In this document: piece by piece, positions 10,779 to 35,636 of the stretch
Layout of the letters: every line of letters starts with the position of its first letter
Position numbering within the stretch: the stretch's first letter is position 1
Translations under genes and position numbers: made by a program
The notes under the pieces: generated by a model
Told to the model about the DNA's origin: nothing
The model's database searches: none
The model's input: only the letters and a program-made list of their open reading frames with translations
From: Candidatus Daviesbacteria bacterium
GTDB taxonomy: Bacteria > Patescibacteriota > Microgenomatia > Daviesbacterales > UBA10151
DNA length: 64,000 bases
Assembly: GCA_016187025.1 (NCBI GenBank)
Contig: JACPKM010000004.1
Location: 228,887-292,886 of the forward strand
Direction of reading: 5' to 3'

Positions 10779-10779
10779 T

Positions 10780-12558: not shown

Positions 12559-12560
12559 TG

Positions 12561-12588
12561 TACAATTTACAATAAACAATTTACAATA
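12561..12588. repeat. Heptamer tandem repeat
   Basis: TACAATT TACAATA AACAATT TACAATA between pilX-like gene and pilM. Confidence 0.7.
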
Positions 12589-12593
12589 AAGTT

Positions 12594-13631: not shown

Positions 13632-13635
13632 AATT

Positions 13636-14187: not shown

Positions 14188-14190
14188 TGT

Positions 14191-17799: not shown

Positions 17800-19818
17800 C
17801 TAGTCAGGCATTACTTCTTTTGCCAAACTGGATAATTTTGCCTGAAGGGGTGGATATTTGTCAAGCGTAGGATCATCAGACAAAATATTTTTTGCAGCCT
17901 CCCTTGTTTTTTCAATTAATGTCAGATCAGAAAATGAGGCTATTTTTAAATCAAACCTGCCTGATTGTCTGGTGCCAAAAATTTCCCCTGCTCCCCTAAT
18001 TTTTAAATCTAGTTCTGCCAATTTTAATCCATCATCAATTTTTTCTAGGTTTTTTAGCCTGCTTATGGCTGATGAGTCAGAGCCTTCAGTAAAAAGCAAA
18101 CAATAAGATTGCTTCTCACCTCTGCCTACCCTGCCTCTTAGCTGATGCAGTTGTGCCAAACCAAACCTTTCAGCAGACTCTATTACCATGATTGTGGCAT
18201 TTGTTACATCAACCCCTACTTCGACAACGGAGGTGGCAACCAGGATATCTATTTTTTTATCTTTAAAACCGTTTAACACTTGCTCCTTCTCTTTTGATTT
18301 TAGTCTTCCATGTAAAATTCCAAGTTTTAGATCAGAAAAAACTTGCTTTTGTAGTTTTTCATACTCATAAGTTGCAGCTTTTGCCGAGGTTAAGGTTTCT
18401 GAAAGCTCAATTAAGGGGGTAATTATGTAAGCCTGATCACCGTCTTTAACTTTTTTTCTGATAAACTCATATGCATCAGTTCGTTTTTTTGATGGAACCA
18501 CATGAGTATTTATCTTTTTCCGGCCTTTTGGCAGCTCATCTATTACTGAGATATCCAAATCTCCATATAAAGTTAAGGCAACAGTCCTTGGAATGGGTGT
18601 AGCAGTAGTTGTTAAAAAATGGGGTAGTTTGCCCCTGCTTCTCAAAACCGTTCTCTGCCCTACCCCAAACCTTTGCTGCTCATCTATGATGACTAAACCT
18701 ACATCTTCGGTAATTAATTTATCTGAGAGTAAAGCATGGGTGCCGATTATCACATCTCCTTTTTCAGATTTTCTGCTTCCTGTATAAATTCCAACTTTGA
18801 TCCCCATTGGCTCAAGCAGTCTTGAAACAGTAGACAGATGCTGAAAAGCCAAAACCTCAGTAGGAGCCATAAAAAGAGTTTTGAGGCTGTTTAAATAAGT
18901 TACATACATAATCACAGCTGCAACAACAGTTTTACCAGAGCCTACCTCGCCTTGTATCAGCCGGTTCATCGGTTGGTTTCTCCCCAAATCATTTAGAACA
19001 TCTTTTATTACTCTTTTTTGAGCAGAGGTTAGCTCAAATGGCAGCCCTTTTATAAACTTTTCTACTTTTTTTATATTGGGGTTTAAAGGTTTGGTAGCAG
19101 GTTTATTTTTCCAGCTCAACCTCATCTTTTGGGTTGCCAGCTGAATATAGAAAAGCTCATCAAAGCCGAGTCTCTCTTTTGCTTTTTGCACATCTTCATA
19201 ATTTTTTGGAAAATGTATTTTGGAAATTGCATCATCTAAATCAAGCATGCTATCTTTAACCTCCTTTGGCAAAGGATCACTGATTTGCTCTTTCACCTTG
19301 GGAAGCATTTGAGAGATTTTTGCTCTTAACCATTTCGAAGTCAGCCCATAAGTTTCAGGATAAACAGGAACCAGTCTGCCAGTATGTAAGGTTGTAGTGG
19401 GTAGTGAGTAGGTTTCAGGTAACTTCTCCCAAACAGGGGCAACTATAGAGATTTTATTTTTGTATTTGCTCACTTTGCCTGAAACCTGTAACCTGTCACC
19501 TGTTTTTATCTGTTTTGTGAGCCAGCTTTGGTGAAACCAGGTTAACTCAATAGGACTGGTGCCATCATTAAAAATTGCCTGAGTAATGATTTTTCTTGAT
19601 CTGGTGAAGATGTTTCTAATTGACCAAATTTCGCCCTGTAAGGTCACTTTTTCACCTACTTTAGCATCTAAAGCACTAGATACATTGGAAAAATCATCAT
19701 ACCTAAAAGGGAAATGATAAATTAGATCTTCCAGAGTATAAAGGTTTAGCCTCTCTAGCTTTTTTGCAGTTGTGTACCCGATTCCTGATATTTGACTTAG
19801 CTGAAGCTTTAAATCCAT
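17800..19818 (-). CDS. recG: ATP-dependent DNA helicase RecG
   Basis: MNRLIQGEVGSGKT, DEQQRFG, TATPIPRT, QLHQLRGRVGRG, wedge domain. Confidence 0.98.
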   Translation of the reverse strand: MDLKLQLSQISGIGYTTAKKLERLNLYTLEDLIYHFPFRYDDFSNVSSALDAKVGEKVTLQGEIWSIRNIFTRSRKIITQAIFNDGTSPIELTWFHQSWLTKQIKTGDRLQVSGKVSKYKNKISIVAPVWEKLPETYSLPTTTLHTGRLVPVYPETYGLTSKWLRAKISQMLPKVKEQISDPLPKEVKDSMLDLDDAISKIHFPKNYEDVQKAKERLGFDELFYIQLATQKMRLSWKNKPATKPLNPNIKKVEKFIKGLPFELTSAQKRVIKDVLNDLGRNQPMNRLIQGEVGSGKTVVAAVIMYVTYLNSLKTLFMAPTEVLAFQHLSTVSRLLEPMGIKVGIYTGSRKSEKGDVIIGTHALLSDKLITEDVGLVIIDEQQRFGVGQRTVLRSRGKLPHFLTTTATPIPRTVALTLYGDLDISVIDELPKGRKKINTHVVPSKKRTDAYEFIRKKVKDGDQAYIITPLIELSETLTSAKAATYEYEKLQKQVFSDLKLGILHGRLKSKEKEQVLNGFKDKKIDILVATSVVEVGVDVTNATIMVIESAERFGLAQLHQLRGRVGRGEKQSYCLLFTEGSDSSAISRLKNLEKIDDGLKLAELDLKIRGAGEIFGTRQSGRFDLKIASFSDLTLIEKTREAAKNILSDDPTLDKYPPLQAKLSSLAKEVMPD
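19613..19722. repeat. 110-bp direct repeat, copy 1 (recG 5' region)
   Basis: Matches 20515-20624 with two mismatches by manual alignment. Confidence 0.9.
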
Positions 19819-19955
19819 TACGGGGATATTTTACTATAGATTGGTTTGCTACGGGGTTACTAATAACTAAACAAGCTAGTAATTCGGGTTTTATTTGGTA
19901 TAAACTGGAGTAAGCAGTTGATGCTATAATTCGAGCAAAGCGAGAATCCTAAAAT

Positions 19956-20350
19956 ATGCTTCCCAATAGAGTTTATTGTTATGTTGATGAAAGTGGCCAA
20001 GATACTGAAGGTGAAATCTTTCTATACTAACAATTGCTAAAACAGTTTTTGCCATTAAAGACTATAAAGAGCACAGATTTATTGTTTTAGTAGATGGGTT
20101 AGGTAAAAAGGATCAAAAATATTATGGTTCAGAGCTTAGAAAACTTGGTGTTCCCTCAAGGGAGGTAAAAGGAGTAACGAGAGATCAAAGTGATGCCTTA
20201 ATAAGGCTTGCTGATAGCATAGCTGGTTTTGTTAGAGATGTAATTGAGAGTAAAGATAAGGATAAGCAGAGCTTGCAAGATAAATCTTTTAAAAAGCTTG
20301 AATCGCTTTTTGAAAAGGCGGTTGATGATAACATACTGGTTGAGGTTTAG
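19956..20350 (+). pseudogene. DUF3800-family gene, frameshifted and probably internally deleted
   Basis: MLPNRVYCYVDESGQDTEGEIFLY* then a second frame ...VLVDGLG...ELRKLGV...VKGV.RDQSDALIRLADSIAGFVRD...LVEV*; upstream TGcTATAAT at 19922-19930. Confidence 0.75.
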
Positions 20351-20355
20351 GCCAT

Positions 20356-20379
20356 AAAAAACCCCCTATTGCTAGGGGG
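20356..20379 (-). terminator. Intrinsic terminator
   Basis: Minus strand CCCCCTA-GCAA-TAGGGGG followed by TTTTTT. Confidence 0.8.
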
Positions 20380-20445
20380 AGCAGCCTAGTCCTTCGATTT
20401 CTCTCAGAACAGCTCACCTGTACGATTAGTCTTCGGCTGAACTTT
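20356..20445 (-). ncRNA. Candidate ~90-nt structured RNA convergent on the DUF3800 gene
   Basis: Bounded by a near-consensus promoter and an intrinsic terminator; CAGCC/GGCTG closing stem, ACAG/CTGT hairpin; no credible ORF within. Confidence 0.6.
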
Positions 20446-20451
20446 AAATAA

Positions 20452-20480
20452 ATCCTACCACAAAACTTTATCTTTGTCAA
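20452..20480 (-). promoter_or_regulatory. Sigma70 promoter for the candidate ncRNA
   Basis: Minus strand TTGACA-17 nt-TAGGAT with extended -10 TG. Confidence 0.7.
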
Positions 20481-20498
20481 AAAAAACATTCTTTTGTG

Positions 20499-20720
20499 TT
20501 AAGCGAAGTTTAAATTTCTAATTGACCAAATTTCGCCCTGTAAGGTCACTTTTTCACCTACTTTAGCACCTAAAGCACTAGATACATTGGAAAAATCATC
20601 ATACCTAAAAGGAAAATGATAAATCAAATCCTCAATAGTGTTTAAACTAAAGAAGCTTAGTTTATAGGCAAGGAATGATCCGATACCTGAGATTTGAATT
20701 AGAGTAGTTTTGAGATCCAT
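20499..20720 (-). pseudogene. Truncated duplicate of the recG 5' end (contains repeat copy 2, 20515-20624)
   Basis: MDLKTTLIQISGIG...EDLIYHFPFRYDDFSNVSSAL.AKVGEKVTLQGEIWSIRN matches RecG N-terminus, then stops. Confidence 0.9.
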
Positions 20721-20756
20721 GAAGATGTATTTTACTACTATTATCTTAATAGACTA

Positions 20757-22688
20757 TCAGGTGTTCTTGACTTTTTTGAAGTCAAAAGCTAGTTTCTTAC
20801 CTTGAGTAATCTGAAAACCAGATACTTCCCATCCAGGAGTTTTTTCTGTGAGCTTTTCTTTAATAATTCTATTTAAATTGGCAACATAACCTTCTATCTC
20901 TCCCCTTTTTAATTCAGCAATTCCTAAGTTTCCTACATGATGATTTTTAACACTTACTCCTCCTGAAGAATCATTTACAAGTTCAACATCAAATGTCGTA
21001 TCTACATTTACAGTTCCAAAAAAGGTTTTTTTCTCTGCATGGACTCCAGCAGAAATAGCCAGTCCTCCTTCAGGCGTAAACTGGTATTGAGGATTTAAGA
21101 TGCGACCATTTGCTGGAAGTGGTAACGTTTTAACATAATCTACAAGTCTGTCAACTCCTGCAACAATTCTTTGTCTTTCAGATCTACTTCCTCTTAATGT
21201 TTCGTTTAATTGATCTATCAGAGATACTCCTGGTTTAGGAGTAATTTCTGTGGTATGTACTTGTGGAACAGCAGGTTTTTCGCTCTTAGTTGGTGGAAAA
21301 GATGGACCCTTGTTTTCTGATATTACAGGTTTTGGTTGTAGATTATTGCTTGGCCTCAATATTACTGCGGGAGATAAGGTTAGTCCGTAGTATCTAATTA
21401 TATCCTGAACGGATTTATATACAGCTCGACCAATACTTGGATCAACAATTTGCACTTCTAAGTTTCCATCACTTGTTCTTCTTACTCTACGTCCAGGTAA
21501 TATAAAGCCTATTCGTCCTGTTTCAACACCTCTTGGACCAATAGTACAGTCATTAATAGGTAAAATTGCTACTGCTCCTTCTTCAACGTTTTGAAGTATA
21601 TCTGCAAGGGAGTTTGTTTCTCTAAATCTTATCTCAGGTGCTTGTAAAGATAATGCGGAAAGTAACTCCTTTATACTTCCACCTCTTTGATGCTCCGTAG
21701 CATATCTACTACCTCCAAGTGCTGCGATCAAAGCACCTTCAGCATGTCTAGAGTGATTAAACCCTTCTCCTAGAAGATGTCTTATAGCATTTTCAGCTGA
21801 AGCAAACACAGAGCTGTCCATTCCAAAAGGATCTGCCTGCGTTCTAATATTTCGTACAGGTTGAGGTTCACGTAAATGCATTAATCTTGGATATCTTTGC
21901 CTGACATCCTTCTCAGCTTCGCGAAACCTCATGAGAGTTTTATCATCAAAATTAAATCCTCTTTCTCTTGCTTCATTCCCCATCCTTGCAAGTTCATTTT
22001 CTAGAACCCTATCAAGTACCCTCCCTGAGTTTGGTGATCCAGAAGGAGTTTTAGTGTCTTTTTTTCCTTCTTTTTGTAATATTCTGGCTTGTTTTAGATA
22101 TACCCACTGTGAACCATAAATTACTGTGGCTGCCTCATCTATTGACTTTGCATATTCTGACTTTACTTTTTCTCTATCTTGAGGTTTATTAGCCTGCTCA
22201 ATTGTCTTTAAAAATCTTTGTGACATTTTTTCAAATTCTAAAGCTGTAGGATAATCTCTTGCTACTCTGTATATATCTCTTGGTACCAGCTGATTTTCTT
22301 GAGTAATATCTCCTCTTCTGGTGGCAAATGAGACCACTCTTCTTAAATGTCTATGGTCTGCATCTTCTCCTTTGAATCTATCAAATACAGCCACTGGATT
22401 TTCTCTATCAGATTGAGCATCAACAGGAGTGGGAATAACAGCTAACAGTTGTCTTAAATCTTTATCACCTATACTACCTGATACCAGTCCTTGATGGTAC
22501 TTATCTTTCTCATCAGTAGTTACATCTACTTTATCCAAAAGTACCAATCTTGGATTTCCTCTGACAATTGAGGCTACTATTTTATTTTGACGTCTAATAT
22601 TAGGGATAGGTTCTTGTTGGGCAACCATTAATGAAGCTGATATTTCAGATGAGTGTTCTGTACTTGCCATAATTATGTATTTTAACAT
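20757..22688 (-). CDS. Modular protein: N-terminal shared domain X, degenerate C39-peptidase-like region, C-terminal beta-rich domain
   Basis: PNIRRQNKIVA...IYGSQWVYLKQARILQKEG shared with two neighbours; SSVFASAENA...GRIGFI...IVDPSIG resembles the C39 fold. Confidence 0.8.
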   Translation of the reverse strand: MLKYIIMASTEHSSEISASLMVAQQEPIPNIRRQNKIVASIVRGNPRLVLLDKVDVTTDEKDKYHQGLVSGSIGDKDLRQLLAVIPTPVDAQSDRENPVAVFDRFKGEDADHRHLRRVVSFATRRGDITQENQLVPRDIYRVARDYPTALEFEKMSQRFLKTIEQANKPQDREKVKSEYAKSIDEAATVIYGSQWVYLKQARILQKEGKKDTKTPSGSPNSGRVLDRVLENELARMGNEARERGFNFDDKTLMRFREAEKDVRQRYPRLMHLREPQPVRNIRTQADPFGMDSSVFASAENAIRHLLGEGFNHSRHAEGALIAALGGSRYATEHQRGGSIKELLSALSLQAPEIRFRETNSLADILQNVEEGAVAILPINDCTIGPRGVETGRIGFILPGRRVRRTSDGNLEVQIVDPSIGRAVYKSVQDIIRYYGLTLSPAVILRPSNNLQPKPVISENKGPSFPPTKSEKPAVPQVHTTEITPKPGVSLIDQLNETLRGSRSERQRIVAGVDRLVDYVKTLPLPANGRILNPQYQFTPEGGLAISAGVHAEKKTFFGTVNVDTTFDVELVNDSSGGVSVKNHHVGNLGIAELKRGEIEGYVANLNRIIKEKLTEKTPGWEVSGFQITQGKKLAFDFKKVKNT

Positions 22689-22779
22689 AAATTATAGGAT
22701 AGATCTATCTAGTTAAGAACAAAACCTAACCAATATCAAACCTATAACACTTGACAAAAGGGCATTCATATTCAAGCTC

Positions 22780-24234
22780 CTACTGAATTGAAGAGGTGAC
22801 TGTAGTAGATGGTTCGCCCCTACCCAGTAATTTGTTTTTGACTAATTTTCTAATGGATTGCCAATATTTGTTTACTCTATCAGAAGTATAAGGATCTCCT
22901 CCATCTGGAATGAGCATATGTTGAGGTAGAAATCCGTTTTGAGCTTCATCTCGAATACTTTCTACCTGCATCCCTCTTACATGCTGGAAATTTACAATAT
23001 TATGTGCTCTGTTTACACCTCCGTCCCCCCAATAAGGGTCATGTATGATTATTTCTTTTTGAGGATCTGCTTCTGGTATTGTTGTATCGACATTACTTCT
23101 ATTAAGAAGTAGCTCTTTGGCAAGCCCTAAACCTGAAAGGCCAATAGTGAACAGATTTCCTAAATTTCCCATACCTACAGATAAAAGATTTCTATCAAAA
23201 TCCGGTTGCATCATTCCTTGATCAATTTCTGTTTGCATAAGGTCATAGAGTTCTTTTACAAAAAAGTAATTCTCCTTCACCTTTGATTGAAGCTTTTTTA
23301 ACAAAGCCTTAACCAGGACATTTTTACGATAACTTCTTTCGTCCTGTTTACCATCGGGGTTTTCATCCTCCGCCAGAATAAACCTCATTGCTGTTAAAGT
23401 ATCCATCTGCTGAGGACCGGCTTTAATAAGTTTTGGACCATATTCTTGACCACCTAGTTTAAAGGGTCCAGTTAGGTGATCTTTTTGCACCTGCACATCT
23501 AAAGGACCAACTTTATCCAAGAGATCTCTGATTACTGTATCTTTTATAACCATCTGGTAATCTATTGCCAAACCTGTGGCTTCTTCCACAACTTCTCGAA
23601 CTTGATCAAACTTTCCTTCACGATAAACATGACGCATATACATAGTTTGCACTCTTCCATCACTTTGTCTTTTTTCTAAATTCGGTGTTCTTATATCGCG
23701 GCTTAAAGATACTGACCTGATTTTTCCAGTTTTCAAATCATAAGAGATGACTGTAGGTGATCCACCATAGTTTGCATAACTTTCTCCATGCTCTTCCCAA
23801 TATACCCATAAAACTGCATTAACTGTGTTGTCGCTAAGTTCCTTATCAACCCTTTTACTATATTCCGGATCGTTTCTTTCTCTTTCTGCTCTTTTGCGGT
23901 ATGCCTGTTCAACAAAAGGTTTTAGGAGTTCATTAGTAAGTTTTACTTCTTTAACTGGTGGTTTAGTTGGTTCAGCAGTAGCGGTTGGAGGTAGTGGGGG
24001 TTGATCTCCTTTTGAAGGTATATTTGTAGGGGGAAAATGCTGATTTGATTCTACTCGAGGAGTTCGCAATAATCCTGGAACTAGTAAAGAGGCGAAACCC
24101 GCAGCGACAGCAGCACCACCACCCAATAAAAATCTTCTCCTGGAAGCATCCGGAGGGATAGCTCCAGATTCACCGAGTCTTATGAAATTAACTTTTCCTC
24201 CTAAAATTGGATCTATTTCAGATATTGGTTCCAT
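22780..24234 (-). CDS. LytR-CpsA-Psr (LCP) family protein, divergent, with twin-arginine-like anchor
   Basis: SRRRFLLGG plus TM, Pro-rich linker, SVSLSRDI, EEATGLAIDY, LLDKVGPLDV, D.RSYRK. Confidence 0.8.
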   Translation of the reverse strand: MEPISEIDPILGGKVNFIRLGESGAIPPDASRRRFLLGGGAAVAAGFASLLVPGLLRTPRVESNQHFPPTNIPSKGDQPPLPPTATAEPTKPPVKEVKLTNELLKPFVEQAYRKRAERERNDPEYSKRVDKELSDNTVNAVLWVYWEEHGESYANYGGSPTVISYDLKTGKIRSVSLSRDIRTPNLEKRQSDGRVQTMYMRHVYREGKFDQVREVVEEATGLAIDYQMVIKDTVIRDLLDKVGPLDVQVQKDHLTGPFKLGGQEYGPKLIKAGPQQMDTLTAMRFILAEDENPDGKQDERSYRKNVLVKALLKKLQSKVKENYFFVKELYDLMQTEIDQGMMQPDFDRNLLSVGMGNLGNLFTIGLSGLGLAKELLLNRSNVDTTIPEADPQKEIIIHDPYWGDGGVNRAHNIVNFQHVRGMQVESIRDEAQNGFLPQHMLIPDGGDPYTSDRVNKYWQSIRKLVKNKLLGRGEPSTTVTSSIQ

Positions 24235-24236
24235 AA

Positions 24237-25565
24237 TTATCTTAATTTAGGTAATCTTATACCTAAGAATTTAGATCTTGCCGGTTTTGGCGATAAATCT
24301 AAAAGAATCTTTGCGCAGTAGCTTAAAGCTAATAATTTACCATTTATCTCAGGTGTTGGAGCATAGCCCCTCCTACCTACATTTTGTGTATATTCATAGA
24401 TATCTTTATAAACTTCTCTGTCAGCAAAAGGCTTGGTCCTGGGATGCTGCATCCTGGAATTAATATGGTTAACAATTAAGTTTGCAAGACTCGCCTTTTG
24501 GCTTATTGTAAGAGTAGTATCTCTAAGAAAGGTTGAAGACAAATGTTGATAGACTCTACGAACCAGATCTGATGATAAATTAGTTAAATTTCTGGCAACA
24601 TTGGGCCAATCTGAGGCCAGGCCTTGAAAAATAAAGGTTAACTCTGGATTGGAAAGAGCTGTAAAATTTCTTCTATTTTCTTCTGTGTCGAAAAATAATG
24701 GCCTGGAAAAATAAAGTCCTAATTTTACCCGAAGCAATGAACGTTGTTCTGGTGTTAGACTCATAGTTTGAGTTGTGTGATCCACAAGCGATTCAATCAT
24801 GGAAGCTACAGTTGTAGCTTCTGCAGGTTGAAGGTCGGGAACCGGGTTTATATTTACTATGTCTGCTTCAGCGGGTTTTAAGACTATCTCGACATCTGGT
24901 GCTGCAACAACTTTTACCTTGGCTGCTTCAGTGTCTTTCCTTCCTTCTTTTTGTAATATTCTAGCTTGTTTGAGATAAGTCCATTGGCCGGCATAAATAG
25001 CTTGTCCGATAGTATCAAGTGTACCGATATACTCTAGCCTAACTTTTTCTCTATCTTCTGGCCTGTTTGCTTCTGAAACAGCTTTTAGTACTTGTGGAAT
25101 TACTTGTTCAAAATCTAAAGCAGTAGGTAGTTTTTCAGTTACGGCATAAAGATCTGATGCTTTGATTTGGTCTTGTGGAGTGATGCTTCCTCTGGTAATA
25201 AAGGCTACCGCTCTTCTCATGTGTCGTTGTTGGAAACCATCTCCCTCAAATCTTGCAAACAAATGTACTGGATTTCTACTATCTGGTGCAGCTTGAACAG
25301 CTGTCGGTAATATGGATACAGCTTTTTTAAAGTCTATTGCAGCTATAGTTCCTTCTCTAATACCTTTGGCAAAGTTTGCTCTTTCATAATCGCTTATTGG
25401 TACTACATCAGGTAATAGTAAACGGGGATTGCCGCGCAATACAGCTGCAATTATTTTATCTTGTCTTCTTGGATTAGGCTCTAGTCTTTCAGGGGGTAAT
25501 AAAGTTATTGAAGAGCTATCAGTTCCTAAAGGATTAGATGAATTACTTTCTGCTGCCTCTGCCAT
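24237..25565 (-). CDS. Modular protein: N-terminal shared domain X plus unknown helical C-terminal domain
   Basis: PNPRRQDKIIAAVLRGNPRL...IYAGQWTYLKQARILQKEG. Confidence 0.85.
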   Translation of the reverse strand: MAEAAESNSSNPLGTDSSSITLLPPERLEPNPRRQDKIIAAVLRGNPRLLLPDVVPISDYERANFAKGIREGTIAAIDFKKAVSILPTAVQAAPDSRNPVHLFARFEGDGFQQRHMRRAVAFITRGSITPQDQIKASDLYAVTEKLPTALDFEQVIPQVLKAVSEANRPEDREKVRLEYIGTLDTIGQAIYAGQWTYLKQARILQKEGRKDTEAAKVKVVAAPDVEIVLKPAEADIVNINPVPDLQPAEATTVASMIESLVDHTTQTMSLTPEQRSLLRVKLGLYFSRPLFFDTEENRRNFTALSNPELTFIFQGLASDWPNVARNLTNLSSDLVRRVYQHLSSTFLRDTTLTISQKASLANLIVNHINSRMQHPRTKPFADREVYKDIYEYTQNVGRRGYAPTPEINGKLLALSYCAKILLDLSPKPARSKFLGIRLPKLR

Positions 25566-25734
25566 ACTTTAATATTATTATCTGGAGAGTGAAAAATACA
25601 ACAATTATCTTTTCAAAGCTCGTATATTAAGTATAATTGCTCTTGTTACTAGATCAGGTTTCTGATTGGTACCCTCAGTAGCTTTTTGAGTGTGTCTTCC
25701 TTGCTTTTTCATTCTCCACTCAGGATAGTGTTGA

Positions 25735-27741
25735 TTATTTTCCTTGTCGCATTTGTTGCTCTAATATTCTGGCTTGTTTGAGATAGACCCATTGTGAGCC
25801 ATAAATTGTCATACCAACCTTATCTAAAACACTAACATACTCTAATCTAATCCTCTCTCTATCTTCTCGTTTATTTGCTTGCTCAACTGCAAGTAATAGC
25901 GTTGGTATTGTTTGCTCAAAATTAAGGGCAGTTGGAAACCGTTTTGCAAAAAAAGCAAGATCTGCAGCGGTTATTTGATCATGAGAGGTAAGATTACCTT
26001 TTGTCACATAAGAAACAATTCTACGCATCCTCCGAGCATCATCCGTAGCTTCCTTAAATTTAGCGAACAGACTTACTGGGCTTTCTGGATCTTTTTCATA
26101 TGCTAAAGAAGTTCGAATAACTTTAATCATATTTAAATACTGTGTTGATCCAATAACACCATCACGAACTCCCTTTTGGAAGAGTGCTCGCTCTGCTTCT
26201 GAAACGACAACTTTATCAACCAACACAAGACGATGATCTCCCCTTACAATCGCTGCAATTATTTTATCTTGTCTTCTTGGATCCGGAGAAGTATTTAGCT
26301 CAACTTGTGATTGTTCAGATGGCTTTTGTCTTACTTGGGATTCCCCTGTTTTGGTAGAGGATGGTAATTGGGGGCCTTGATTCCATGAGTCCATATAAAC
26401 GGTTGCCATATTAGTTTCGCCCCTTTTTATTGACTCTTGCATTCTTCTAGATCTTTCTATAAATCTGCTCATGTCTGTAATTACTATCCGGCTTCCGTGG
26501 ATATCTTTAGGGTCTCCTATGATTGTATATTGAATACCAACCATTTCTAGGTGAGTTCTATAAAACCAAGAATTCTTGCCCAAATGTTCTCCTTCCTCGT
26601 AGCCATTAATCACTTTATTTAATATTTGAGTTATTTCCGCTTTAAGTTGCTCTACCTTTGCTGGATTAGAATAATCAAACATGGGGAACTGATTTACATC
26701 TAAAGCCCTCATCTTAGCTTCTGCAGATGTATCACCAAATGGAATCTGTCTTCCTTGGCCTTCTAAATAGCTGCTTAATCCCCGCCTATTATTTGTGATT
26801 AATACTGTTCCATCACCGGCATATCCGAGTGTTCCTTTTGCTTTTCTTAGTGATCGTATTGTTTTCCCAGTCCATTCTTGTTCTCCTGTTTTTAGCGCAG
26901 AAGGGTAACCTCCAATCGCAGAGTAAATCGATGACTTCATTACAGAGTTTGCCCCAAATAAGTTTACATTTCCATTAATAAAACCACGTTTATCAAGCAG
27001 ATTGACAAATTCTGTTTTAGCATGAACAGCTGGAAATCTGGTAAAGGATTGAGGATCAAATAAAAGGTTTCCAACAGCACCTTCTTTATCAGGATGTTCT
27101 CTAAAATATTTTAAATATTCTTCTAGGTATTGTGGATTTAAGCCCTCACAATCAGCATCGTTACTCAGTAGTAATATATCCTTATAAACTCCCGCATTTT
27201 CTGTTCTTATTAGTGCAAGATCAGTTTGAATTTTTCTAATATTCCCAATCTTTACCTGCTCGTCTGGTAAGGTTGCTGCCACTAAGCGAATATTTAACCT
27301 AGGGAAAGTTTTTCCAGCACGTTTCACTTCTACAACAGTGGCTTTGTATGCGTCTTTTTTACTCTGCATTTGGGATTCAGGAGCGTTCACAAAAACGATT
27401 AACTCAAATTTTTTTGAGTCTAGTGTTTGTTCAGAGTAAAGTTTTAATGTCTTAAATATATTCCTTGCTTCTTGTATACCAGCAACCGGTATACAAACTA
27501 CGGCTTCTGTTTCAGGACGCATGCTTTTACCAATTTGACTATCTAGTCTTTTCAGTTGTGCTAAGTATTTTGGATCCTGTCTTTGTAGGTAACTTCTTCT
27601 TTCTGTGACCGGGTCTAATTTAGCATTTGGATTTTGTAATAATGTCGGAGAGGCAGCTACTCGATCAACTAAACTTACTTGTCTTAAGGTAAATGGGTTA
27701 TCAGGTGTGGATATGATATCTGCTGTTGGATCTTGGTCCAT
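25735..27741 (-). CDS. GT2-like glycosyltransferase with C-terminal shared domain X
   Basis: VVCIPVAG, FELIVFVN, IGNIRK, LSNDAD (DxD), GANS...YSAIGGY; C-terminus PDPRRQDKIIAA...IYGSQWVYLKQARIL. Confidence 0.85.
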   Translation of the reverse strand: MDQDPTADIISTPDNPFTLRQVSLVDRVAASPTLLQNPNAKLDPVTERRSYLQRQDPKYLAQLKRLDSQIGKSMRPETEAVVCIPVAGIQEARNIFKTLKLYSEQTLDSKKFELIVFVNAPESQMQSKKDAYKATVVEVKRAGKTFPRLNIRLVAATLPDEQVKIGNIRKIQTDLALIRTENAGVYKDILLLSNDADCEGLNPQYLEEYLKYFREHPDKEGAVGNLLFDPQSFTRFPAVHAKTEFVNLLDKRGFINGNVNLFGANSVMKSSIYSAIGGYPSALKTGEQEWTGKTIRSLRKAKGTLGYAGDGTVLITNNRRGLSSYLEGQGRQIPFGDTSAEAKMRALDVNQFPMFDYSNPAKVEQLKAEITQILNKVINGYEEGEHLGKNSWFYRTHLEMVGIQYTIIGDPKDIHGSRIVITDMSRFIERSRRMQESIKRGETNMATVYMDSWNQGPQLPSSTKTGESQVRQKPSEQSQVELNTSPDPRRQDKIIAAIVRGDHRLVLVDKVVVSEAERALFQKGVRDGVIGSTQYLNMIKVIRTSLAYEKDPESPVSLFAKFKEATDDARRMRRIVSYVTKGNLTSHDQITAADLAFFAKRFPTALNFEQTIPTLLLAVEQANKREDRERIRLEYVSVLDKVGMTIYGSQWVYLKQARILEQQMRQGK

Positions 27742-27779
27742 ATTTAAATAATTACTTGATTAGTTTGAGCTTGCATTGT

Positions 27780-30700
27780 CTATTTGAGTTGATTATAGGC
27801 GTTAGATAAATCTATTAACATTTGATCAGTAGTTTGGTATCTATTTCTTGGTTCTGGATCAAGCCCCTTAATAAATATTCTTTTAATACTATCAGGTATG
27901 TTTGCTGGAATTTCAAATCTTCCATTCGTATGGGCTTCATATTCTCTTTCTAGTAATCTTTGCGTTGATTCACCTTTAAATCTTGGAACATTAAATGGGA
28001 AATTACCAGTCATTAACTTATATAGCAATACTGTTAATTCATAGGTATCGCAGCTTAAAGTAACATTAGGGTTTTCTCTAAAAAGTTCTGGAGGTCTAAT
28101 ATGTCTATTTCCTCCTACAAACCCTCTCCTAAATTTCCCCCCGGTACCTTTAATGCTACCTGCATCAAAGTCGATTATTTTTATACCTTGCTCGCCCAGT
28201 AGGATATTAGAAAGTGCAATATCAAGATGTACAATACCTGCATTATGAAGCTCTCTTATAGTTTCTGCAATTTTTATAGTAGTAGCAATTGCTTGCTGGG
28301 GTGGTAAAGACCTATTTGTCGCAAAGTAATGCTCTAAATCAGTATTTTGAAGTGGATAAATTTTAATGATTTCGTCACCGTTATCAATTTCATCTATAAA
28401 AGTACCAAATGTAGGGCTTGTTGTTTGTGCCTTGATTATTGTTTCTAGATCTTTTACTCCATCTGGATAACGATTTGCTTTTGCAATGTATTCTCTTTCA
28501 CTCTTTTTTACCCTTTTAAACGACAAAATCTGTCCAGTTGTTTTATTGTATCCTGCAACAATTTGTCCCATTTGACCTGATCCTAAAGGTTTATCTAAAC
28601 AAACCACATAATCACCAAATTCTTGAATTTGCGTGCTCTCCTTTAGCTTTTCTAGATCATACTTTGGAGCAGTTGTTGTAGGTATAACTACTGGGTTTTC
28701 CTTATTAAACTGATCCAAAGCGTTATCCGCTTCTGCTTTTTCTGCTAACTCACGTTCTTTTCTTGTGATATCCAAGTTTTCTAGTTCTTTTTGGAATTCA
28801 TCCTCAAGTCTGGTAAGCTCAGCCAAAGTTTCTGGAGTTCCTTTACCTGCTTTTATATCTCTGAGTAATACTCCAATCTTTTGATAGTGTTTTAATCCTC
28901 TAACTAAAACATCCATATTTATTATAACCACATTACCATTTACTACTTTGTACTGGATTCCCGACCATCGTAGTGCACGTTGGTAATATTCAGAGTCCTT
29001 GCCAAGTCTTTCGCCATGTTCGTAAATATCAAGTGTTTTATTAATAACTGTCTCCAATCCTTCTTTGAATTTAGCAAGTTGAGCGGGATCATCGTAATTA
29101 ATATTTTCTCCTTCCCCAAGTTGCATTCTTCTGATTTCATCATCGAAGGCACTGAATTCTTTTTGCCATTGATCTAAAGGAACAATTCCATCCTTGATTG
29201 CGGCTATGGCTCGTCTGGCTGATGTGTATAGCCTGGATACTCTTGTTCCCGCGAAGGTAACTCTTTTATGGTCCTGTCGACCTTCAATAATTCCCCAGCC
29301 AATCGCAATATCTTCCCCGCCTTCAGAACCTGGTAAATAACCACCAATAGCAGCATAAATACTTCCACGAAACGCAAAGTTTGCTCCACTTGAAGGCATT
29401 CGCCCGCTGCGGTGGCGACCAATTACGGCTAAATTCTGAAACAAACGCGTACCAATATGTAATAGTGGATATTTAATATAAGCTTCCGGATCCCAATCGA
29501 GTTGACCCAGCATTCCATCTACTTGCGGGTTTTGTTCAAACTTCTGAATGAAGTTACTTAAATATGTTGGAGCAATACCTTTGTTATCTGCATCGTTACT
29601 TATTAAGATTATATCTTCTGCTTTAGGACCTCTCTGATATTGCCTAAAAAGTGCAATATCATTTAAATACTTTCTGATAGTGCCAATGTTTGCCTGCTTT
29701 ATAGGGAGCGCTTTAACTACCACTCTAATAGGCACATCAGGATGATCTTTTCTAAATCGTTCTATTTCTGATAAGGTGTTATCGGGTTTGACTGGTTCTC
29801 CTTGTTTATCAGTTTGTGGGTAATTTACAAAAAGCAAGATCTCATATTGGTCCTTAGAAGCATCCTGAGGTAGATAATTTGCCAAAGAGTTATAAATATT
29901 TCCTCCTTCTTGATGTCCTGCTACCGGAATACAAACTATAGCCTTTAAGTTCACCGAAGGTTCTTCTTTAATCTGTCCTGTTAACTGTTTTATTTCTTGA
30001 TAATATGCTGGATTCTGCTTTTCAAAATACATCTGTGCTTCTTGGTATGAATTTAGTTTTGCATTGGGGTTTTGCTTTAATGTTTTAGATCTATTTTTTG
30101 CTAAGATTTTCAAAATTTCCTCTCTTGGCCTGCCTCCATAAAGAGAGCCAGGAGGTATAAGTCTTTCTTCAAATGGTAGAGGGTGATATGGGGCAAAAGG
30201 GGTTGCCCAGAGCTTATCTGCAGGTATTTCTGCTGGTAAAGGTGGGATATATTTAATTGCTTCAGGCGGGGTAAGCTTAAACCCTTCGTGAGGCGGTCTG
30301 GGCTCAGGAATAGGAATTGCCTCCCCCGGAATAGTAGTTGGAATCTTTTGAACTTCCCCCGGACCAACTGTTGTTGAAAGTATAGTTCTTACCATGGATC
30401 CATCCGGCCTTTTTTCAACATGCGCAACCTCAATAAATTCTACATTCTGAAAGTTTCCCCATTTGTTCCTAATGGGATTTCCATTTTGATCCAGATTAAA
30501 TAAAGCTTTTGTTAAAGGAGAGTTAGCATCTAAATTAAGTTTTCCCTGCATAAGCTCCGGATGGGTTTGGGCATTAATTACCACTACTTGTCTTGCCTCA
30601 TCAGCTGCATGATCAGGAGTAATTAAAATCTCAAAATTTCGATAACCATTTTGAGAAATATCTTTTGCAAGCCTGCCGTATTGTGAATCAATGGAAAAAT

Positions 30701-33700
30701 CCCAGTTTACCCCTCTTTTTCCATCAGGCAGAAGCTGTGATCTCATCTGGGAAAAGTCCAGCTCAACTTGTCCATCTTTTACCCTGTGATGAAATTGCAG
30801 TTCTTTGCCGTCTATTCCAATTATATTGCCAGTATCCTTACTGCCTGCTGGTCTGCCGTCAGCAAATCTTCTTATGGTGTCGTTATCATGCCAAAGATCA
30901 CGTCTGGCCCGGTCTACCTCCCCAATTTCTTTATGTTCTCTTATAAAACCAAAAAAATCTTTATCAACAATCTTATCGGGACTTTTCTCATATCTTATTC
31001 CAGGAGGTGTTTCAAATTGCTTAGACTCAATTGCCCATCCTTCTGTTTTGAGCCTGGATTGGACACTGTCCCAGTTAACATTTGCATTAGCCGGATCCTG
31101 CGGGTCAAAAGACAAAGCTCCTTCCTGGTCAAAATGGCCCACAATCCAAGCATTATCAGGGCTTTTTATATCAGGGTTACCCAGAAAAATAGAAACAGAG
31201 CCACGGTCTTTGTTCAAATCCACAATTGAGCTTCCGTGGATAAAAGTTAAGTCCTGCTCCGGTGAGCTGGCAAAATTCTTAATCTTTTGATGAATATTAA
31301 AATCAGGGTTATCATAGATTTCTCTTGTCCATCCTGTATCAGTTACTAAATTTTTAATTTTTGGATCAAGGCTGGCTTCAGCTCCTGAAATAACCAGTGA
31401 GCCTTCTGAGGTAACCCTCACCGGAGGACCGGCAATTGTCTGCCCGGTAGCCCTGTCTATAAAATGTGCATTGTGCCCATTATCCGCTCCATAGTTTGTT
31501 GCTAAAGTCAGATCATTGTTAAGGTCGTAATTTTTAGGATTATCAAAAGTTTGTTTGAAAGTATCCCTTGCTAATCCAGGTGCTCTTGTAGGTGTCCACC
31601 TGGTTTCAAAAAAGCCCCTTCCATCCATCATGTTTTGAACACCCCTGACAGCCAGTCCTCCTGCAAATCCTAAGGTAGATGCAAAAATTGTTGCTCCAGC
31701 TGCCTGGCGGACTCTGTAGTTTCTTGCTGCTCCATTTTTTGCTCTTTTGTCATCACTGATTTCCTGGTCAACAACATCAAATTGCTCTGACAGTAAAGTA
31801 TTAAGTTGTGCCGCATCTGTAATCTGGGACCTTAACTTTTGCTCAAGCCTTGCTGCAGCATCAACCAACTGAGCAACTTCCTGATCTGCTAAAACATAAT
31901 TTTTACCGTAAGTTATATACTCACTTTTTTCTCTTCTTCCTCTAATAAGTCTTACTCTAATTTCCTGCATTCTTCTTGCTACTTCTTGCTGGTTGGTCGT
32001 GTTGGATAAATCCAATGTGAGTAATTGATCAACTCCCGCTTGGAGATGATTTTGACCTCCGCCATCAAGCAGTTGCTTTGCAGAAAAGGTTTGGTAGCGG
32101 GATCTTTCCATATCCCGCCTTCTTTCTGTACCACGCAGTCTTCCCCATAGCCCTCCATTTGCCTGCATATCAGGTACTGTTCCACCTAAAGCAACCTCTG
32201 CTGCATGCATTTTTTGCTGATGTGCGACCTCTCCTAGTCTTCTTAACCCTACAACTCCTCCTCCTGCAACCGCACCAAGAATTAATCCTCCTAATGGTCC
32301 TGCTAAAGCTGTGCCTCCAACTACAGCGCCTATCCTCACCCCGCCATTTGCAGCTTTTAGCAGCCCATCTGCCCCCAGCGAAACCGCTGCTCCCACAAAC
32401 AGAGGGTTTAGAATTGTTCCTGCCAGCAGACTGTCGCCGCCCTTTACTAAACTTTCAGCCCGTCTTCTTCTTGCCCAGGCAACAGTTTTATCTGTGGCTG
32501 TGAGGTTTTCGGTATTACCGGCAAATCTTGCATTTGCAAGCCTTATGGTGACATAAGCATCAATTTGGTCAGCTCCTTCCTGGTGTTTTGCCAGATTATC
32601 TTTGAGCTTTAGCCCCATTTCCAAAAGATCTGTTGCAAAATAATCAGCAATCTGCCCAAAACTTTCAGCTTGATTACCAAATAGTTGCCTGATTAAAGGA
32701 TTATCCATATTGTTTTGGACAAACTGAGTTAACTGCCTTCTAACATCTTCTTTTCTTTGTCTAATTTCAGCTTCATTTTGAGGAACATTACCAGTAACAA
32801 TAGGGGTAAGGATGTCTTTAATAATTTTGCCTCTTAAGTCATTTTGTTCAGGAGTGTTTTTATCTAGTGTAATAATTTGCTCTCCATTTAGAGTTTGATT
32901 TGCTTTTAATCTGCCCAACACTGCTTGCTGTTGCGCATCGGTACTGTGTCTTAGATCATTTAGTCTTTGTGCAGCTTCTTGAGAGAGGCCTCTCACTGGA
33001 GAGCCATCAAAAAATGATTTTCTCATCTTTTCGTACATTAGATTAACCGCTCCACCTCTGCCGAGTCTTACTCCTATCATTGAGGGAATTCTCCAAATAT
33101 CCCTCCAGCCTTTAAACTTCAAAAACTTTTCTACCTCTTTTTGTGCGTCCAGGTGCAAAACTTTTTCAATAACGTCTGTATTTCTGGTAATATTTATTTC
33201 AACCTCTCTTTGTTCTGGCTGAGAAGATGGAGATGGTTCTACTCCTGGTCTTCCTGGGGTGTCAACAGGTGCAGGAGCTGCAGCAGGTGCGCCGCCTGGA
33301 GCAGAAGCTGCAGGAGCTGGGGAGGGGGCAGCAGGCTGTTTGACAGGTTGCAGAGTATCTGGATCAACCAGCTCCCTTCTTGCCTCCAATGCAGGCTTGG
33401 CAACCTCAAGCCAGTCTTTATCTGGTTCTCCTCTTTTTCTGGAATCCTGATATGCAAAATACGCCTCTTGTTGTAAACGGGCTTTAAATTGTGGACTTGA
33501 TTCATCGTGAGCATCAGGATGCACCTCTTTATAAGCCTTACTGCTTGCTTTTAAAACTTTAATTGCATTTTGAATTTTCTTCCTCTCATTTTTATTAGTT
33601 GTAAAAAGAGCTTCCTCGTTTAACAGTTCAAGAAGCCCGTCAATCGGAACACCCTCACTTTGGCTGAAAGCTTGCCCTGTTTGGGGATCTGTAAAGTTGT

Positions 33701-34010
33701 TTGTAAAACTAAACCCGCCCTTTGCGATATCAGCTTTATTTTTAGGATCAGGTTGATTGCTGCTATCCGGGTGGGGTGCAAAAGCGCCTTGGATAGCTTC
33801 ATAAGCATGTCTTGCCTTGTTTATCTTACCTGTTTGATTGGGGTCTGCAAGCAAACTTGGGTTATTTAAAAGCCCCTCAATTTTTGTTAGTCCAAAACGT
33901 AGAGCATTTTTGACTTGTTGCCGGCTAGGAATTTCCGGGGTGTTAATTTTACCAGGATGACTTTCTATATCTTGAACTGAGACAGGGTTTTCTGTTGGTT
34001 GGCCGTTCAT
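27780..34010 (-). CDS. 2076-aa multidomain protein: Gly-rich hydrophobic core, GT2-like glycosyltransferase, C-terminal Ser/Thr protein kinase
   Basis: GAVVGGTALAGPLGGLILGAVAGGG segments; IVCIPVAG, ISNDAD, SGANFAFRGSIYAAIGGY; kinase LGSGQMG, LSFKRV, IVHLDIALSNILL, IIDFD, RPPE, CDTYEL. Confidence 0.9.
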   Translation of the reverse strand: MNGQPTENPVSVQDIESHPGKINTPEIPSRQQVKNALRFGLTKIEGLLNNPSLLADPNQTGKINKARHAYEAIQGAFAPHPDSSNQPDPKNKADIAKGGFSFTNNFTDPQTGQAFSQSEGVPIDGLLELLNEEALFTTNKNERKKIQNAIKVLKASSKAYKEVHPDAHDESSPQFKARLQQEAYFAYQDSRKRGEPDKDWLEVAKPALEARRELVDPDTLQPVKQPAAPSPAPAASAPGGAPAAAPAPVDTPGRPGVEPSPSSQPEQREVEINITRNTDVIEKVLHLDAQKEVEKFLKFKGWRDIWRIPSMIGVRLGRGGAVNLMYEKMRKSFFDGSPVRGLSQEAAQRLNDLRHSTDAQQQAVLGRLKANQTLNGEQIITLDKNTPEQNDLRGKIIKDILTPIVTGNVPQNEAEIRQRKEDVRRQLTQFVQNNMDNPLIRQLFGNQAESFGQIADYFATDLLEMGLKLKDNLAKHQEGADQIDAYVTIRLANARFAGNTENLTATDKTVAWARRRRAESLVKGGDSLLAGTILNPLFVGAAVSLGADGLLKAANGGVRIGAVVGGTALAGPLGGLILGAVAGGGVVGLRRLGEVAHQQKMHAAEVALGGTVPDMQANGGLWGRLRGTERRRDMERSRYQTFSAKQLLDGGGQNHLQAGVDQLLTLDLSNTTNQQEVARRMQEIRVRLIRGRREKSEYITYGKNYVLADQEVAQLVDAAARLEQKLRSQITDAAQLNTLLSEQFDVVDQEISDDKRAKNGAARNYRVRQAAGATIFASTLGFAGGLAVRGVQNMMDGRGFFETRWTPTRAPGLARDTFKQTFDNPKNYDLNNDLTLATNYGADNGHNAHFIDRATGQTIAGPPVRVTSEGSLVISGAEASLDPKIKNLVTDTGWTREIYDNPDFNIHQKIKNFASSPEQDLTFIHGSSIVDLNKDRGSVSIFLGNPDIKSPDNAWIVGHFDQEGALSFDPQDPANANVNWDSVQSRLKTEGWAIESKQFETPPGIRYEKSPDKIVDKDFFGFIREHKEIGEVDRARRDLWHDNDTIRRFADGRPAGSKDTGNIIGIDGKELQFHHRVKDGQVELDFSQMRSQLLPDGKRGVNWDFSIDSQYGRLAKDISQNGYRNFEILITPDHAADEARQVVVINAQTHPELMQGKLNLDANSPLTKALFNLDQNGNPIRNKWGNFQNVEFIEVAHVEKRPDGSMVRTILSTTVGPGEVQKIPTTIPGEAIPIPEPRPPHEGFKLTPPEAIKYIPPLPAEIPADKLWATPFAPYHPLPFEERLIPPGSLYGGRPREEILKILAKNRSKTLKQNPNAKLNSYQEAQMYFEKQNPAYYQEIKQLTGQIKEEPSVNLKAIVCIPVAGHQEGGNIYNSLANYLPQDASKDQYEILLFVNYPQTDKQGEPVKPDNTLSEIERFRKDHPDVPIRVVVKALPIKQANIGTIRKYLNDIALFRQYQRGPKAEDIILISNDADNKGIAPTYLSNFIQKFEQNPQVDGMLGQLDWDPEAYIKYPLLHIGTRLFQNLAVIGRHRSGRMPSSGANFAFRGSIYAAIGGYLPGSEGGEDIAIGWGIIEGRQDHKRVTFAGTRVSRLYTSARRAIAAIKDGIVPLDQWQKEFSAFDDEIRRMQLGEGENINYDDPAQLAKFKEGLETVINKTLDIYEHGERLGKDSEYYQRALRWSGIQYKVVNGNVVIINMDVLVRGLKHYQKIGVLLRDIKAGKGTPETLAELTRLEDEFQKELENLDITRKERELAEKAEADNALDQFNKENPVVIPTTTAPKYDLEKLKESTQIQEFGDYVVCLDKPLGSGQMGQIVAGYNKTTGQILSFKRVKKSEREYIAKANRYPDGVKDLETIIKAQTTSPTFGTFIDEIDNGDEIIKIYPLQNTDLEHYFATNRSLPPQQAIATTIKIAETIRELHNAGIVHLDIALSNILLGEQGIKIIDFDAGSIKGTGGKFRRGFVGGNRHIRPPELFRENPNVTLSCDTYELTVLLYKLMTGNFPFNVPRFKGESTQRLLEREYEAHTNGRFEIPANIPDSIKRIFIKGLDPEPRNRYQTTDQMLIDLSNAYNQLK

Positions 34011-34012
34011 TA

Positions 34013-34351
34013 CTAGTTTGTAACTGGTGTAGAAATAACTGTATTCCCAAGATATAAATCCCTAAAATCCAACATAGCTTTGGCAAACACATCCTCTGAG
34101 TTGGGAATTTTTTCTTTTAAGAATTGTTGAATTTCTTGTTGTGGCCTTTTTTGGTCCACCATTTGGCTGAATTGGTCTAAATGTTCAGGGGGCAAATTAT
34201 CCAAAATAGTTGTAGACAGGAAATTATCAAGTCTGACATATAAATCATCGATTAGCTGCTTGTGCATATTCCCGTCTGCAGCAGTGATACCTGCCTCTGT
34301 TAATAGATTGTCTAAATAGCCCCTAACTTCTGGTGGAATTTGGTTATCCAA
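34013..34351 (-). CDS. Small acidic helical protein, DUF5663-like (CPR)
   Basis: Strong SD AAGGAGGTGA before TTG; L..RLD.FL...ILDNLP..HLD.F...EIQQFL.EKIPN; stop 2 nt before giant gene start. Confidence 0.75.
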   Translation of the reverse strand: MDNQIPPEVRGYLDNLLTEAGITAADGNMHKQLIDDLYVRLDNFLSTTILDNLPPEHLDQFSQMVDQKRPQQEIQQFLKEKIPNSEDVFAKAMLDFRDLYLGNTVISTPVTN

Positions 34352-34443
34352 AAAACTTCACCTCCTTATTCATACTTAATTCCAGTATTTCACTAATAAT
34401 AATATGTTGTCAACAGGAAACCCGCTATTTATACTTAAAACAC

Positions 34444-35139
34444 ATGTTATTTGTTTTTGTGTTTTTACTTGAGTTGTTTTTGTTGTATTTCTTATCTAAA
34501 AATTTGATAAAAGAGTTATCCGTAATTCTTCTAAAAATAAGCAAGTATAACCATTCATTTACTGTTAATATTTTGGCTGTAGTTTTTTTGCCTGGGACAA
34601 TAATGCATGAGCTTGCTCATCTTTTAATAGCCGGAGTTTTGATGGTCCCTGTTGGCGAGTTAGAAGTGATCCCTGAGATAACAGATAAAGGAGTCAAACT
34701 GGGAAGTGTCCAAGTTGGCCAAACAGACCCTTTTAGAAGAATTTTAATAGGAGTTGCTCCGGTTTTAGTAGGGATTGCCACCATTACCTTTATAATTTTT
34801 TTCAACCTTGATACTTTAAAAAATTTATCTTCCTGGTTGATTATCTCTTCGGTTGTTTATGGACTCTTTGAGGTTTCTAACACTATGTTTTCCAGTAAAA
34901 AAGATATAGAGGGGGCTTTAGTGTTTCTTGGTGCTTTGGTAGTTGTTGGAGTAATACTGTTTGGGGCATTTTTATTCACAGGACAATCAATTCCTAACAG
35001 TTGGCTAAAACTTGTTGATTTTTCCTCTGTTTATATCTTTTTTAAAATGGTTAGTTTATATATGCTCCTGCCTTTGATAATTGATTTGTGCTTTTTTGCA
35101 GTTTTTAAACTGGTTAACCTAGCCTTAAATCGAGGTTAA
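34444..35139 (+). CDS. Membrane protein with HExxH motif (M50-like metallopeptidase)
   Basis: FLPGTIMHELAH, LGSVQ...DPFRRILIGVAP, NTMFSSKKD; several TMs; ATG 34444. Confidence 0.75.
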   Translation: MLFVFVFLLELFLLYFLSKNLIKELSVILLKISKYNHSFTVNILAVVFLPGTIMHELAHLLIAGVLMVPVGELEVIPEITDKGVKLGSVQVGQTDPFRRILIGVAPVLVGIATITFIIFFNLDTLKNLSSWLIISSVVYGLFEVSNTMFSSKKDIEGALVFLGALVVVGVILFGAFLFTGQSIPNSWLKLVDFSSVYIFFKMVSLYMLLPLIIDLCFFAVFKLVNLALNRG

Positions 35140-35229
35140 AAGTGGCAGTAGTGAAAACAGCAGGATTGATATCCCTGCAATTACTGACAAAACAATCCAA
35201 AAAATTCTAAACTTTTTTGAATACATCAT
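35125..35229 (-). CDS. Small single-TM protein (34 aa), below ORF-track cutoff
   Basis: MMYSKKFRIFWIVLSVIAGISILLFSLLPLLTSI*: basic N-terminus plus one hydrophobic helix. Confidence 0.5.
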   Translation of the reverse strand: MMYSKKFRIFWIVLSVIAGISILLFSLLPLLTSI

Positions 35230-35336
35230 ACTTTTATATTCCGGGCATAGAGAGTATTTCAAGCTCTGCTTATATTATAATATTTGCTTTTTAAAAAGAA
35301 AAGATATATAAATTAATTTTAGAAGGAAGTCAAAAG

Positions 35337-35636
35337 ATGAGTACTATAGAAGCAGATGCACCAATTGCGTACAGGCCAGAAAGCCTGTTTTCAACTATGC
35401 CTGTTGATACTTATAGAGGTGCCAGGAGATTTTGGCGGACCGTAATAGATTGGACCGTAGTAGGTGCAGGAGCCTTTCTTGGGTCTGCTTTAGCCATGCA
35501 TACAGGATTAGTAGATCCTGGACTTGTGCTTCATGAAGCTGTGTTATATCAAGGTGCAATTGGCGGTGGGGTAATGGTGGGTTTTGTTACAGCTTCACTT
35601 CAAGCCAATCCAATGGAGATGATAGCAAGGTCCTAG
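35337..35636 (+). CDS. Hypothetical membrane protein
   Basis: 99-aa ORF, two hydrophobic stretches, SD-like AAGGAAG. Confidence 0.6.
   Translation: MSTIEADAPIAYRPESLFSTMPVDTYRGARRFWRTVIDWTVVGAGAFLGSALAMHTGLVDPGLVLHEAVLYQGAIGGGVMVGFVTASLQANPMEMIARS

Follow-up and report, generated by a model that had tools for sequence, protein, structure and literature searches.

The locus described here lies in a 64,000-nt stretch of a Candidatus Daviesbacteria genome (GenBank assembly GCA_016187025.1, contig JACPKM010000004.1, positions 228,887 to 292,886), which we call the window. Six co-oriented genes encode, in transcription order, a small DUF5663-like protein, a giant multidomain protein and four shorter proteins, three of which share a domain that we call X. 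The first two genes represent a conserved unit of Patescibacteria, consisting of a DUF5663 gene and a giant with a fixed N-terminal region of ~800 aa and exchanged C-terminal modules. The chain of genes in the window is a local meeting of two unrelated carriers, the giant and X, that share a pool of modules. Our main results are thus the DUF5663-giant unit, the X family and their common cargo pool, not the six-gene architecture. The locus is real and is undescribed in the literature searched: the unit was not found in searches on Patescibacteria secretion systems, large Candidate Phyla Radiation (CPR) proteins or glycine zipper translocation in Patescibacteria, and the sole mention of DUF5663 was as a supplement annotation.

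The DUF5663 protein (34013..34351; coordinates are window positions on the minus strand unless marked +) has 112 aa, a pI of 4.4 and a match to PF18908 (E = 1.7e-11), and is a candidate chaperone of the giant. The giant (27780..34010; 2076 aa) comprises an N-domain, a helical core that we call the chassis, a beta-type middle region, a proline linker, a glycosyltransferase (GT) domain of GT-A-like type and a protein kinase, and has no evident signal peptide. The chassis core (31611..33218, residues ~265–800) shows conserved glycine and arginine columns in 26 aligned rows. It contains a glycine-zipper hydrophobic hairpin (~528–590) and a third glycine-zipper segment (~770–788), all weakly hydrophobic, with basic flanks, and its structure model is helical with a predicted local distance difference test score (pLDDT) of 74.9. 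Queried as a single protein, the N-terminal region has relatives in 6 of 61 genomes, while the chassis profile is present in 26 of 301 class genomes; the open reading frames (ORFs) in question mostly have 1450–2440 aa. Other classes have the chassis as well, for instance in loci of the Saccharibacteria type, where it lies between infB and fmt. When giant homologs were sought by words, an approach whose sensitivity is far below that of the genome searches, two proteins only came back.

A DUF5663-like gene is located at the 5' end of 25 of the 29 loci selected by their chassis, a count that is partly circular, as the DUF5663 profile was built from 20 of the counted genes; locus L016, with a weak 363-aa chassis match, was excluded. 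Two of the four loci without the gene are contig ends. DUF5663 itself was found in 56 of 301 phylum genomes. In four loci (L137, L147, L150, L152) its neighbors are proteins of 450–770 aa with an acidic N-terminus, a glycine-rich hairpin, a third glycine-rich segment and a small C-terminal domain, and with no clear homology to the chassis.

The C-terminal cargo of the giants differs among genomes and includes GT-A-like and GT9 domains, kinases, PP2C phosphatases, metallophosphoesterases, C39-like domains, FkbM methyltransferases and unknown domains. One giant holds both a kinase and a PP2C, and many have no GT match. An earlier note on this DNA had named a conserved giant N-terminus, variable C-terminal cargo and recurring linkage to DUF5663 as support for its reading, and these three points are borne out by the chassis distribution, the cargo differences and the linkage count. 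Downstream of the giant, recG is found in seven of nine same-family loci, directly in five (G027, G012, G265, G189, G034) and no more than two or three genes away in the other two, and an LCP (LytR-CpsA-Psr) gene follows in three (G024, G005, G022). One of the nine, G022, has its 5' end cut and was counted by cargo homology alone. The usual giant-recG junction is kept in the window through a 73-aa 5' fragment of recG (20499..20720; 81% nucleotide identity to the intact gene). The G024 giant (L011:9309-16323) is split in its middle region into two overlapping ORFs, and G297 and G260-type loci have other breaks or lost motifs.

Domain X is found three times in the window, with 43–49% identity among copies (E = 1e-45 to 1e-57). 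It represents an all-helical family of ~175 aa whose structure model is confident (pLDDT 97.7) and has no clear counterpart among solved folds: the best Z score was 4.5 among 48,161 chains, and Foldseek gave no match at E ≤ 0.001. X has no housekeeping-domain match in Pfam or NCBIfam; an Atlas search gave no usable match, a search of phages no match, and none of 91 pattern matches in metagenome contigs was confirmed as a close relative. A profile of the three copies retrieved 153 clusters at 50% identity, and the following statistics come from the 150 of these that were listed, two being the window's own and one false. X is N-terminal to variable cargo in 144 of 149, so that its C-terminal position in the window's GT-X protein (25744..26286) is rare in the family; it occurs in tandem in 16 of 150, and a hydrophobic segment is present in 2 of 150. 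By cargo, the clusters comprise an unknown domain of ~340 aa (38 clusters), PP2C-like (30) and EDR1/transglutaminase-like domains (5), a GT, a kinase and singletons. Pfam searches of 91 X proteins found PP2C in 29, with metal-binding motifs kept in 26 of the 29, an EDR1-type peptidase in 3 and no match in 59. The commonest cargo, the ~340-aa domain (P0012 and 37 others), is highly conserved and has no Pfam, NCBIfam or Atlas match; animal-associated Saccharibacteria (L093, L097, L101, L104) carry two genes for X with this cargo in tandem.

The family is rare, with X in 1 of 61 relatives, 3 of 301 class genomes (two doubtful) and 6 of 401 phylum genomes. Two weak, partial class-level matches were set aside: that of G291, where the ORF looks integrase-like to us, and that of G132, which the X profile did not recover. 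A single-pattern scan found 19 X loci, 18 of them titled CPR (15 Saccharibacteria, 2 Moranbacteria and 1 Dojkabacteria) and one Gammaproteobacteria. The last (L088) is an X-EDR1 gene on a contig titled uncultured Gammaproteobacteria.

X and the giant are separate carriers. Homology between X and the chassis is ruled out (profile probability 1.8%), and X fused into a giant was not seen among proteins of 1142–3260 aa, which is weak evidence. X was beside the giant in none of 34 other giant loci, and no chassis, DUF5663 or GT genes were found near the 19 X loci (flanks up to 10 kb) or 5 further ones; these samples are incomplete genomes, in which not found is not absent. Because X was not found in the 34 giant loci, the six-gene chain is not conserved, and it was seen in one genome only. 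The six genes therefore do not form one conserved multi-part system. The linkage of X to the giant or DUF5663 that the earlier note looked for was not seen, the chassis being found in 1 of 10 X-bearing genomes, and its idea that X is a tag for docking to the giant has no support. It is plausible that X is an independent carrier or export tag.

The two families meet in their cargo. All four modules that accompany X in the window (GT, C39-like domain, beta domain and an unknown helical B-cargo) are also found inside giants of relatives, and across the X family each of the modules GT, kinase, PP2C, C39, beta and B-cargo has a match in giants; the two carriers therefore draw on one cargo pool. The whole C39 and beta cargo corresponds to the final ~380 aa of the giant in G005 (414 columns, 32%, E = 1e-35), which is followed by an LCP gene and then recG. 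For B-cargo the match is at the C-terminal end of a large protein of G022 with a chain of cargo modules (E = 3.7e-16, 28% identity), which also has PP2C and C39 and has two LCP genes following it. An X-kinase from elsewhere matches the kinase of the window giant.

The GT-like domain is present twice in the window (33% identity, E = 1e-65). In the giant (28878..30089) its DAD and ED motifs are intact in a 14-row alignment, whereas the GT of the GT-X protein (25735..27741, 668 aa) keeps DAD and has EQ in place of ED. This second GT is 53% identical to P0004, which is an X-GT protein of a different dataset. The two form a clade with support 100/100 that is sister to a group with the window giant, so the GT of GT-X was not recently copied from the neighboring giant. 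At the DNA level the two window GTs share only two ~50-nt patches near 80%. The genes behind the giant also have their own starts; they are not silent cassettes of alternative modules such as polymorphic toxins have. The EQ variant is shared with the X-GT protein elsewhere and so predates the window locus. The GT tree as a whole is at odds with taxonomy, and the f27 giants have lost the DXD motif.

Module labels given previously are partly confirmed. The kinase (27828..28592) and the LCP protein are assigned by Pfam; GT2 and C39 have no profile match in the window proteins and are supported through homologs. The GT2 assignment rests on motifs in the 14-row alignment and on homolog matches (a single one of the 14 members, with E = 8e-4, and one giant above the Pfam cut-off), and no sequence match was found in the PDB. 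The kinase (PF00069, E = 1.4e-25, 90.6 bits, above cut-off) keeps the glycine loop, the beta3 lysine (LSFK) and the catalytic Asp/Asn (HLDIALSN), with HLD and DFD replacing HRD and DFG, the latter change leaving the Mg-binding aspartate in place. For the C39-like domain the label comes from the G189 homolog (E = 1.6e-4, below cut-off) and from aligned Cys/His/Asp residues. This triad is present in G005, G189 and G022 and reads Ser/Arg/Asp in the 643-aa window protein (20757..22688; X, C39-like and beta domains), where the domain is probably dead, with Ser replacing Cys and Arg replacing His. Both copies borne by X in the window, GT and C39, thus look catalytically altered. The divergent LCP-family protein (22780..24234; PF03816, E = 3.7e-12, 47.1 bits against a cut-off of 24.6; NCBIfam 36 bits, below the cut-off of 62) has one N-terminal hydrophobic segment (35–53). 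Aligned to 3qfi and 3okz, it has SPT for SDS and FILAE for YARMR/YSRMR, with one arginine of the RQ motif region kept; several residues of solved LCPs are lacking, and it has probably lost residues that we take to be catalytic.

ORF analysis confirmed the six co-oriented genes with overlapping domain content, with X three times, the GT-like domain twice, and DUF5663, Pkinase and LCP by Pfam. In transcription order the intergenic gaps are 2, 38, 169, 2 and 91 nt. The X of the 442-aa protein (24237..25565; X and B-cargo) lies at 24936..25478 and that of GT-X directly upstream in the chain, and the two have in common an exact repeat of 31 nt, located at X's 5' motif (25444..25474 and 26252..26282). 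Within it 9 of 9 synonymous codons are the same, vs. 33 of 77 elsewhere in the X copies; the repeat shows an apparent recent exchange between them. Logan contigs of two sequencing runs, both belonging to the probable source study, break at this repeat, which is real, and cover all 30 bins with zero variant letters. An assembly artefact is unlikely, the Logan check coming from the same study and not being independent.

A promoter-like site (34384..34413; TTGACA-18-AATACT with extended TG, 10 of 12 matches) is among the best scorers and lies 5' of the DUF5663 gene, and a terminator-like hairpin (20362..20379) ends the gene run after the recG fragment. Across the region there are 39 promoter-like sites vs. 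45.5 in shuffles and 13 such hairpins vs. 15.3, so that in both cases the position is suggestive only. A minus-strand promoter-like site at 20452–20480 could, with the hairpin, delimit a small RNA; an Rfam search of 19500–35700 gave zero matches. Between the recG fragment and intact recG lies a frameshifted remnant (19953–20347, +), whose first piece weakly resembles DUF3800 (E = 0.25). On the other side, a membrane protein with an HExxH-type motif (34333–35139, +) lies divergently beside the DUF5663 gene and has its intergenic region in common with it, an arrangement found in many relatives. Further away (4570–14886, +) is what we take from its motifs to be a type IV pilin/pseudopilin cluster with pilM/N/O-like genes, upstream of a trmD-rpsP-rnc-nusB-recG block.

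We give about an even chance to the reading of the locus as one of chaperoned, polymorphic, host-modifying effectors; both their export and their targets we infer. DUF5663 would shield the hydrophobic hairpin of the giant inside the producer cell, and the giant would be exported, perhaps through a relaxase-less CPR type IV system, and insert in a membrane at host contact. Its enzymes would thereby be placed where ATP, nucleoside diphosphate sugars and S-adenosylmethionine occur. The charge distribution is consistent with such a topology: lysine and arginine average 4.3 per 15 residues before the third segment and 1.0 per ~12.5 after it, so that by the positive-inside rule all cargo, including the nucleotide-dependent enzymes, would lie across the membrane from the giant's N-terminus. 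X would be an export or targeting tag of soluble cargo, and its catalytically altered copies in the window may be binders or modulators, or may be decaying.

A possible export route exists in the type IV secretion systems (T4SS) of CPR bacteria, which are relaxase-less (10.1101/2025.01.22.634366). The T4SS of Patescibacteria is essential in S. epibionticum, and no substrate of it is known (PMC10633639, PMC11665869). The genome studied here carries VirB4-like ATPases and PrgI. Of 20 DUF5663 loci, one has the DUF5663 gene directly behind virB4. More tentatively, and with the chances leaning against it, DUF5663-chaperoned giants and X-tagged soluble proteins may be the two substrate classes of this T4SS. 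The giant would then penetrate membranes as an effector with several enzymes, and X would serve as a new export signal at the N-terminus, with host targets glycosylated, phosphorylated or dephosphorylated rather than killed outright. Transposon sequencing of S. epibionticum found SEML1_0161 (2304 bp, 767 aa; between infB and two DUF5663 genes) and the DUF5663 gene SEML1_0162 to be essential, a second DUF5663 gene, SEML1_0163, to be growth-defective and a third copy, SEML1_0221, to be non-essential (PMC10633639 Table S1). Since a DUF5663 gene and its large neighbor are essential in a cultured Saccharibacterium, the effector idea is testable.

Several observations weigh against the effector reading. 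SEML1_0161 is tied to the giant by position only (proteins in similar slots reach 15% profile probability against the chassis), and polar effects on the essentiality calls are possible. DUF5663 is absent from two chassis loci not cut by a contig end and lies on the opposite strand in 2 of the 25 linked loci, and many Saccharibacteria carry it without a large neighbor. Fold searches with the chassis model matched no solved fold, including any translocon or toxin, although the model is beyond the size for reliable single-domain matches. X and the giant were seldom found in one genome (1 of 10 X-bearing genomes, with the chassis on another contig). No immunity-like gene follows the giant in the nine same-family loci, where recG or LCP is found instead, and GT9, FkbM, LCP and GT-A also belong to the usual enzymes for envelope glycans.

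These last two points, the main ones against the effector reading, suit an explanation in which the system modifies the producer's own envelope, the giant being integral to the CPR membrane, its modules building or capping a surface glycan and the adjacent LCP attaching it. Multidomain enzymes of the WbdD/WbbB type provide a model. GT-like domains are the commonest giant cargo (22 tree rows), GT9 and FkbM occur as well, and LCP follows the giant in three of the nine loci. We nevertheless consider this explanation unlikely. PP2C, Hanks-type kinase and transglutaminase-like cargo is at odds with glycan synthesis, many giants have no GT match, and the f27 giants that lack DXD, together with a window LCP that lacks residues found in solved LCPs, fit it poorly. 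The charge bias would put cargo and N-terminus on opposite sides of the membrane, and no flippase or nucleotide-sugar genes were noticed among the giants' nearest neighbors.

Cytoplasmic signaling, with nothing exported, is a second alternative: CPR phosphatases, kinases and pseudo-enzymes would carry X as a domain for regulation or interaction, and the giant would be a membrane-tethered hub. Transmembrane segments are nearly absent from the listed X proteins, PP2C is their commonest named cargo and mostly keeps its metal-binding motifs, a kinase and PP2C occur together on one giant, and dead enzyme copies are compatible with regulation. The patchy presence of X among phylum genomes, its scattered loci, the turnover of modules and a GT tree that departs from taxonomy are, however, more typical of conflict genes, and we regard this alternative as quite improbable. 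Least probable of all is that local events of duplication and shuffling behind the giant left the three X genes as non-functional remains, with only the DUF5663-giant pair of importance; the chain in a single genome, the broken C39 triad, the GT with EQ for ED, the recG fragment and frameshifted remnant downstream and the 31-nt repeat would fit, but all three X ORFs are intact despite divergence of X to 43–49% identity, and the EQ variant is common to the X-GT protein of the other dataset in the same clade.

For the question of how Patescibacteria act on their hosts, the DUF5663-chassis pair and X provide two sequence markers of candidate substrates. Both markers occur in Saccharibacteria, where genetics exists. 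If the more tentative reading is true and DUF5663-chaperoned giants and X-tagged proteins are the two substrate classes of the T4SS, together they would be the first defined CPR effector repertoire.

Among known systems, polymorphic toxins (CdiA, Rhs, LXG) likewise have a conserved N-terminal carrier, variable C-terminal modules, modules that appear on several carriers and extra modules downstream of the main gene. Unlike these, the window locus has no match to a known carrier or export domain and no immunity genes were seen in it; several enzymes are chained per giant, the cargo is modifying rather than lytic, and the downstream genes are whole genes with their own carrier. X resembles BID of the Bartonella Beps and XVIPCD of Xanthomonas, portable T4SS substrate domains, in being one non-catalytic conserved domain on many cargoes, sometimes in tandem, with genes scattered over the genome. 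It differs in its N-terminal position in nearly all listed clusters; no sequence or fold match was found, and X is a candidate export domain. With the LCP glycopolymer transferases, the window protein shares a PF03816 match above cut-off and an N-terminal hydrophobic segment, whereas it falls below the NCBIfam cut-off and has changes at the SD and two arginine positions of solved LCPs. Closer to the DUF5663-giant pair are type VI secretion effectors of the Eag/prePAAR type, in which Eag chaperones bind effector transmembrane domains (PMC7773334), and effectors such as Tde1, in which glycine zippers mediate translocation (PMC10240207). In both, as here, a small dedicated gene accompanies a protein with two or three N-proximal hydrophobic glycine-rich helices and C-terminal enzymes that need cytoplasm. 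However, no PAAR, prePAAR, Rhs or Eag-family Pfam match was found in the window, and DUF5663 belongs to another Pfam family and is a candidate binder only. Although it is not a member of any of these known families, the locus resembles a chaperoned polymorphic effector locus.

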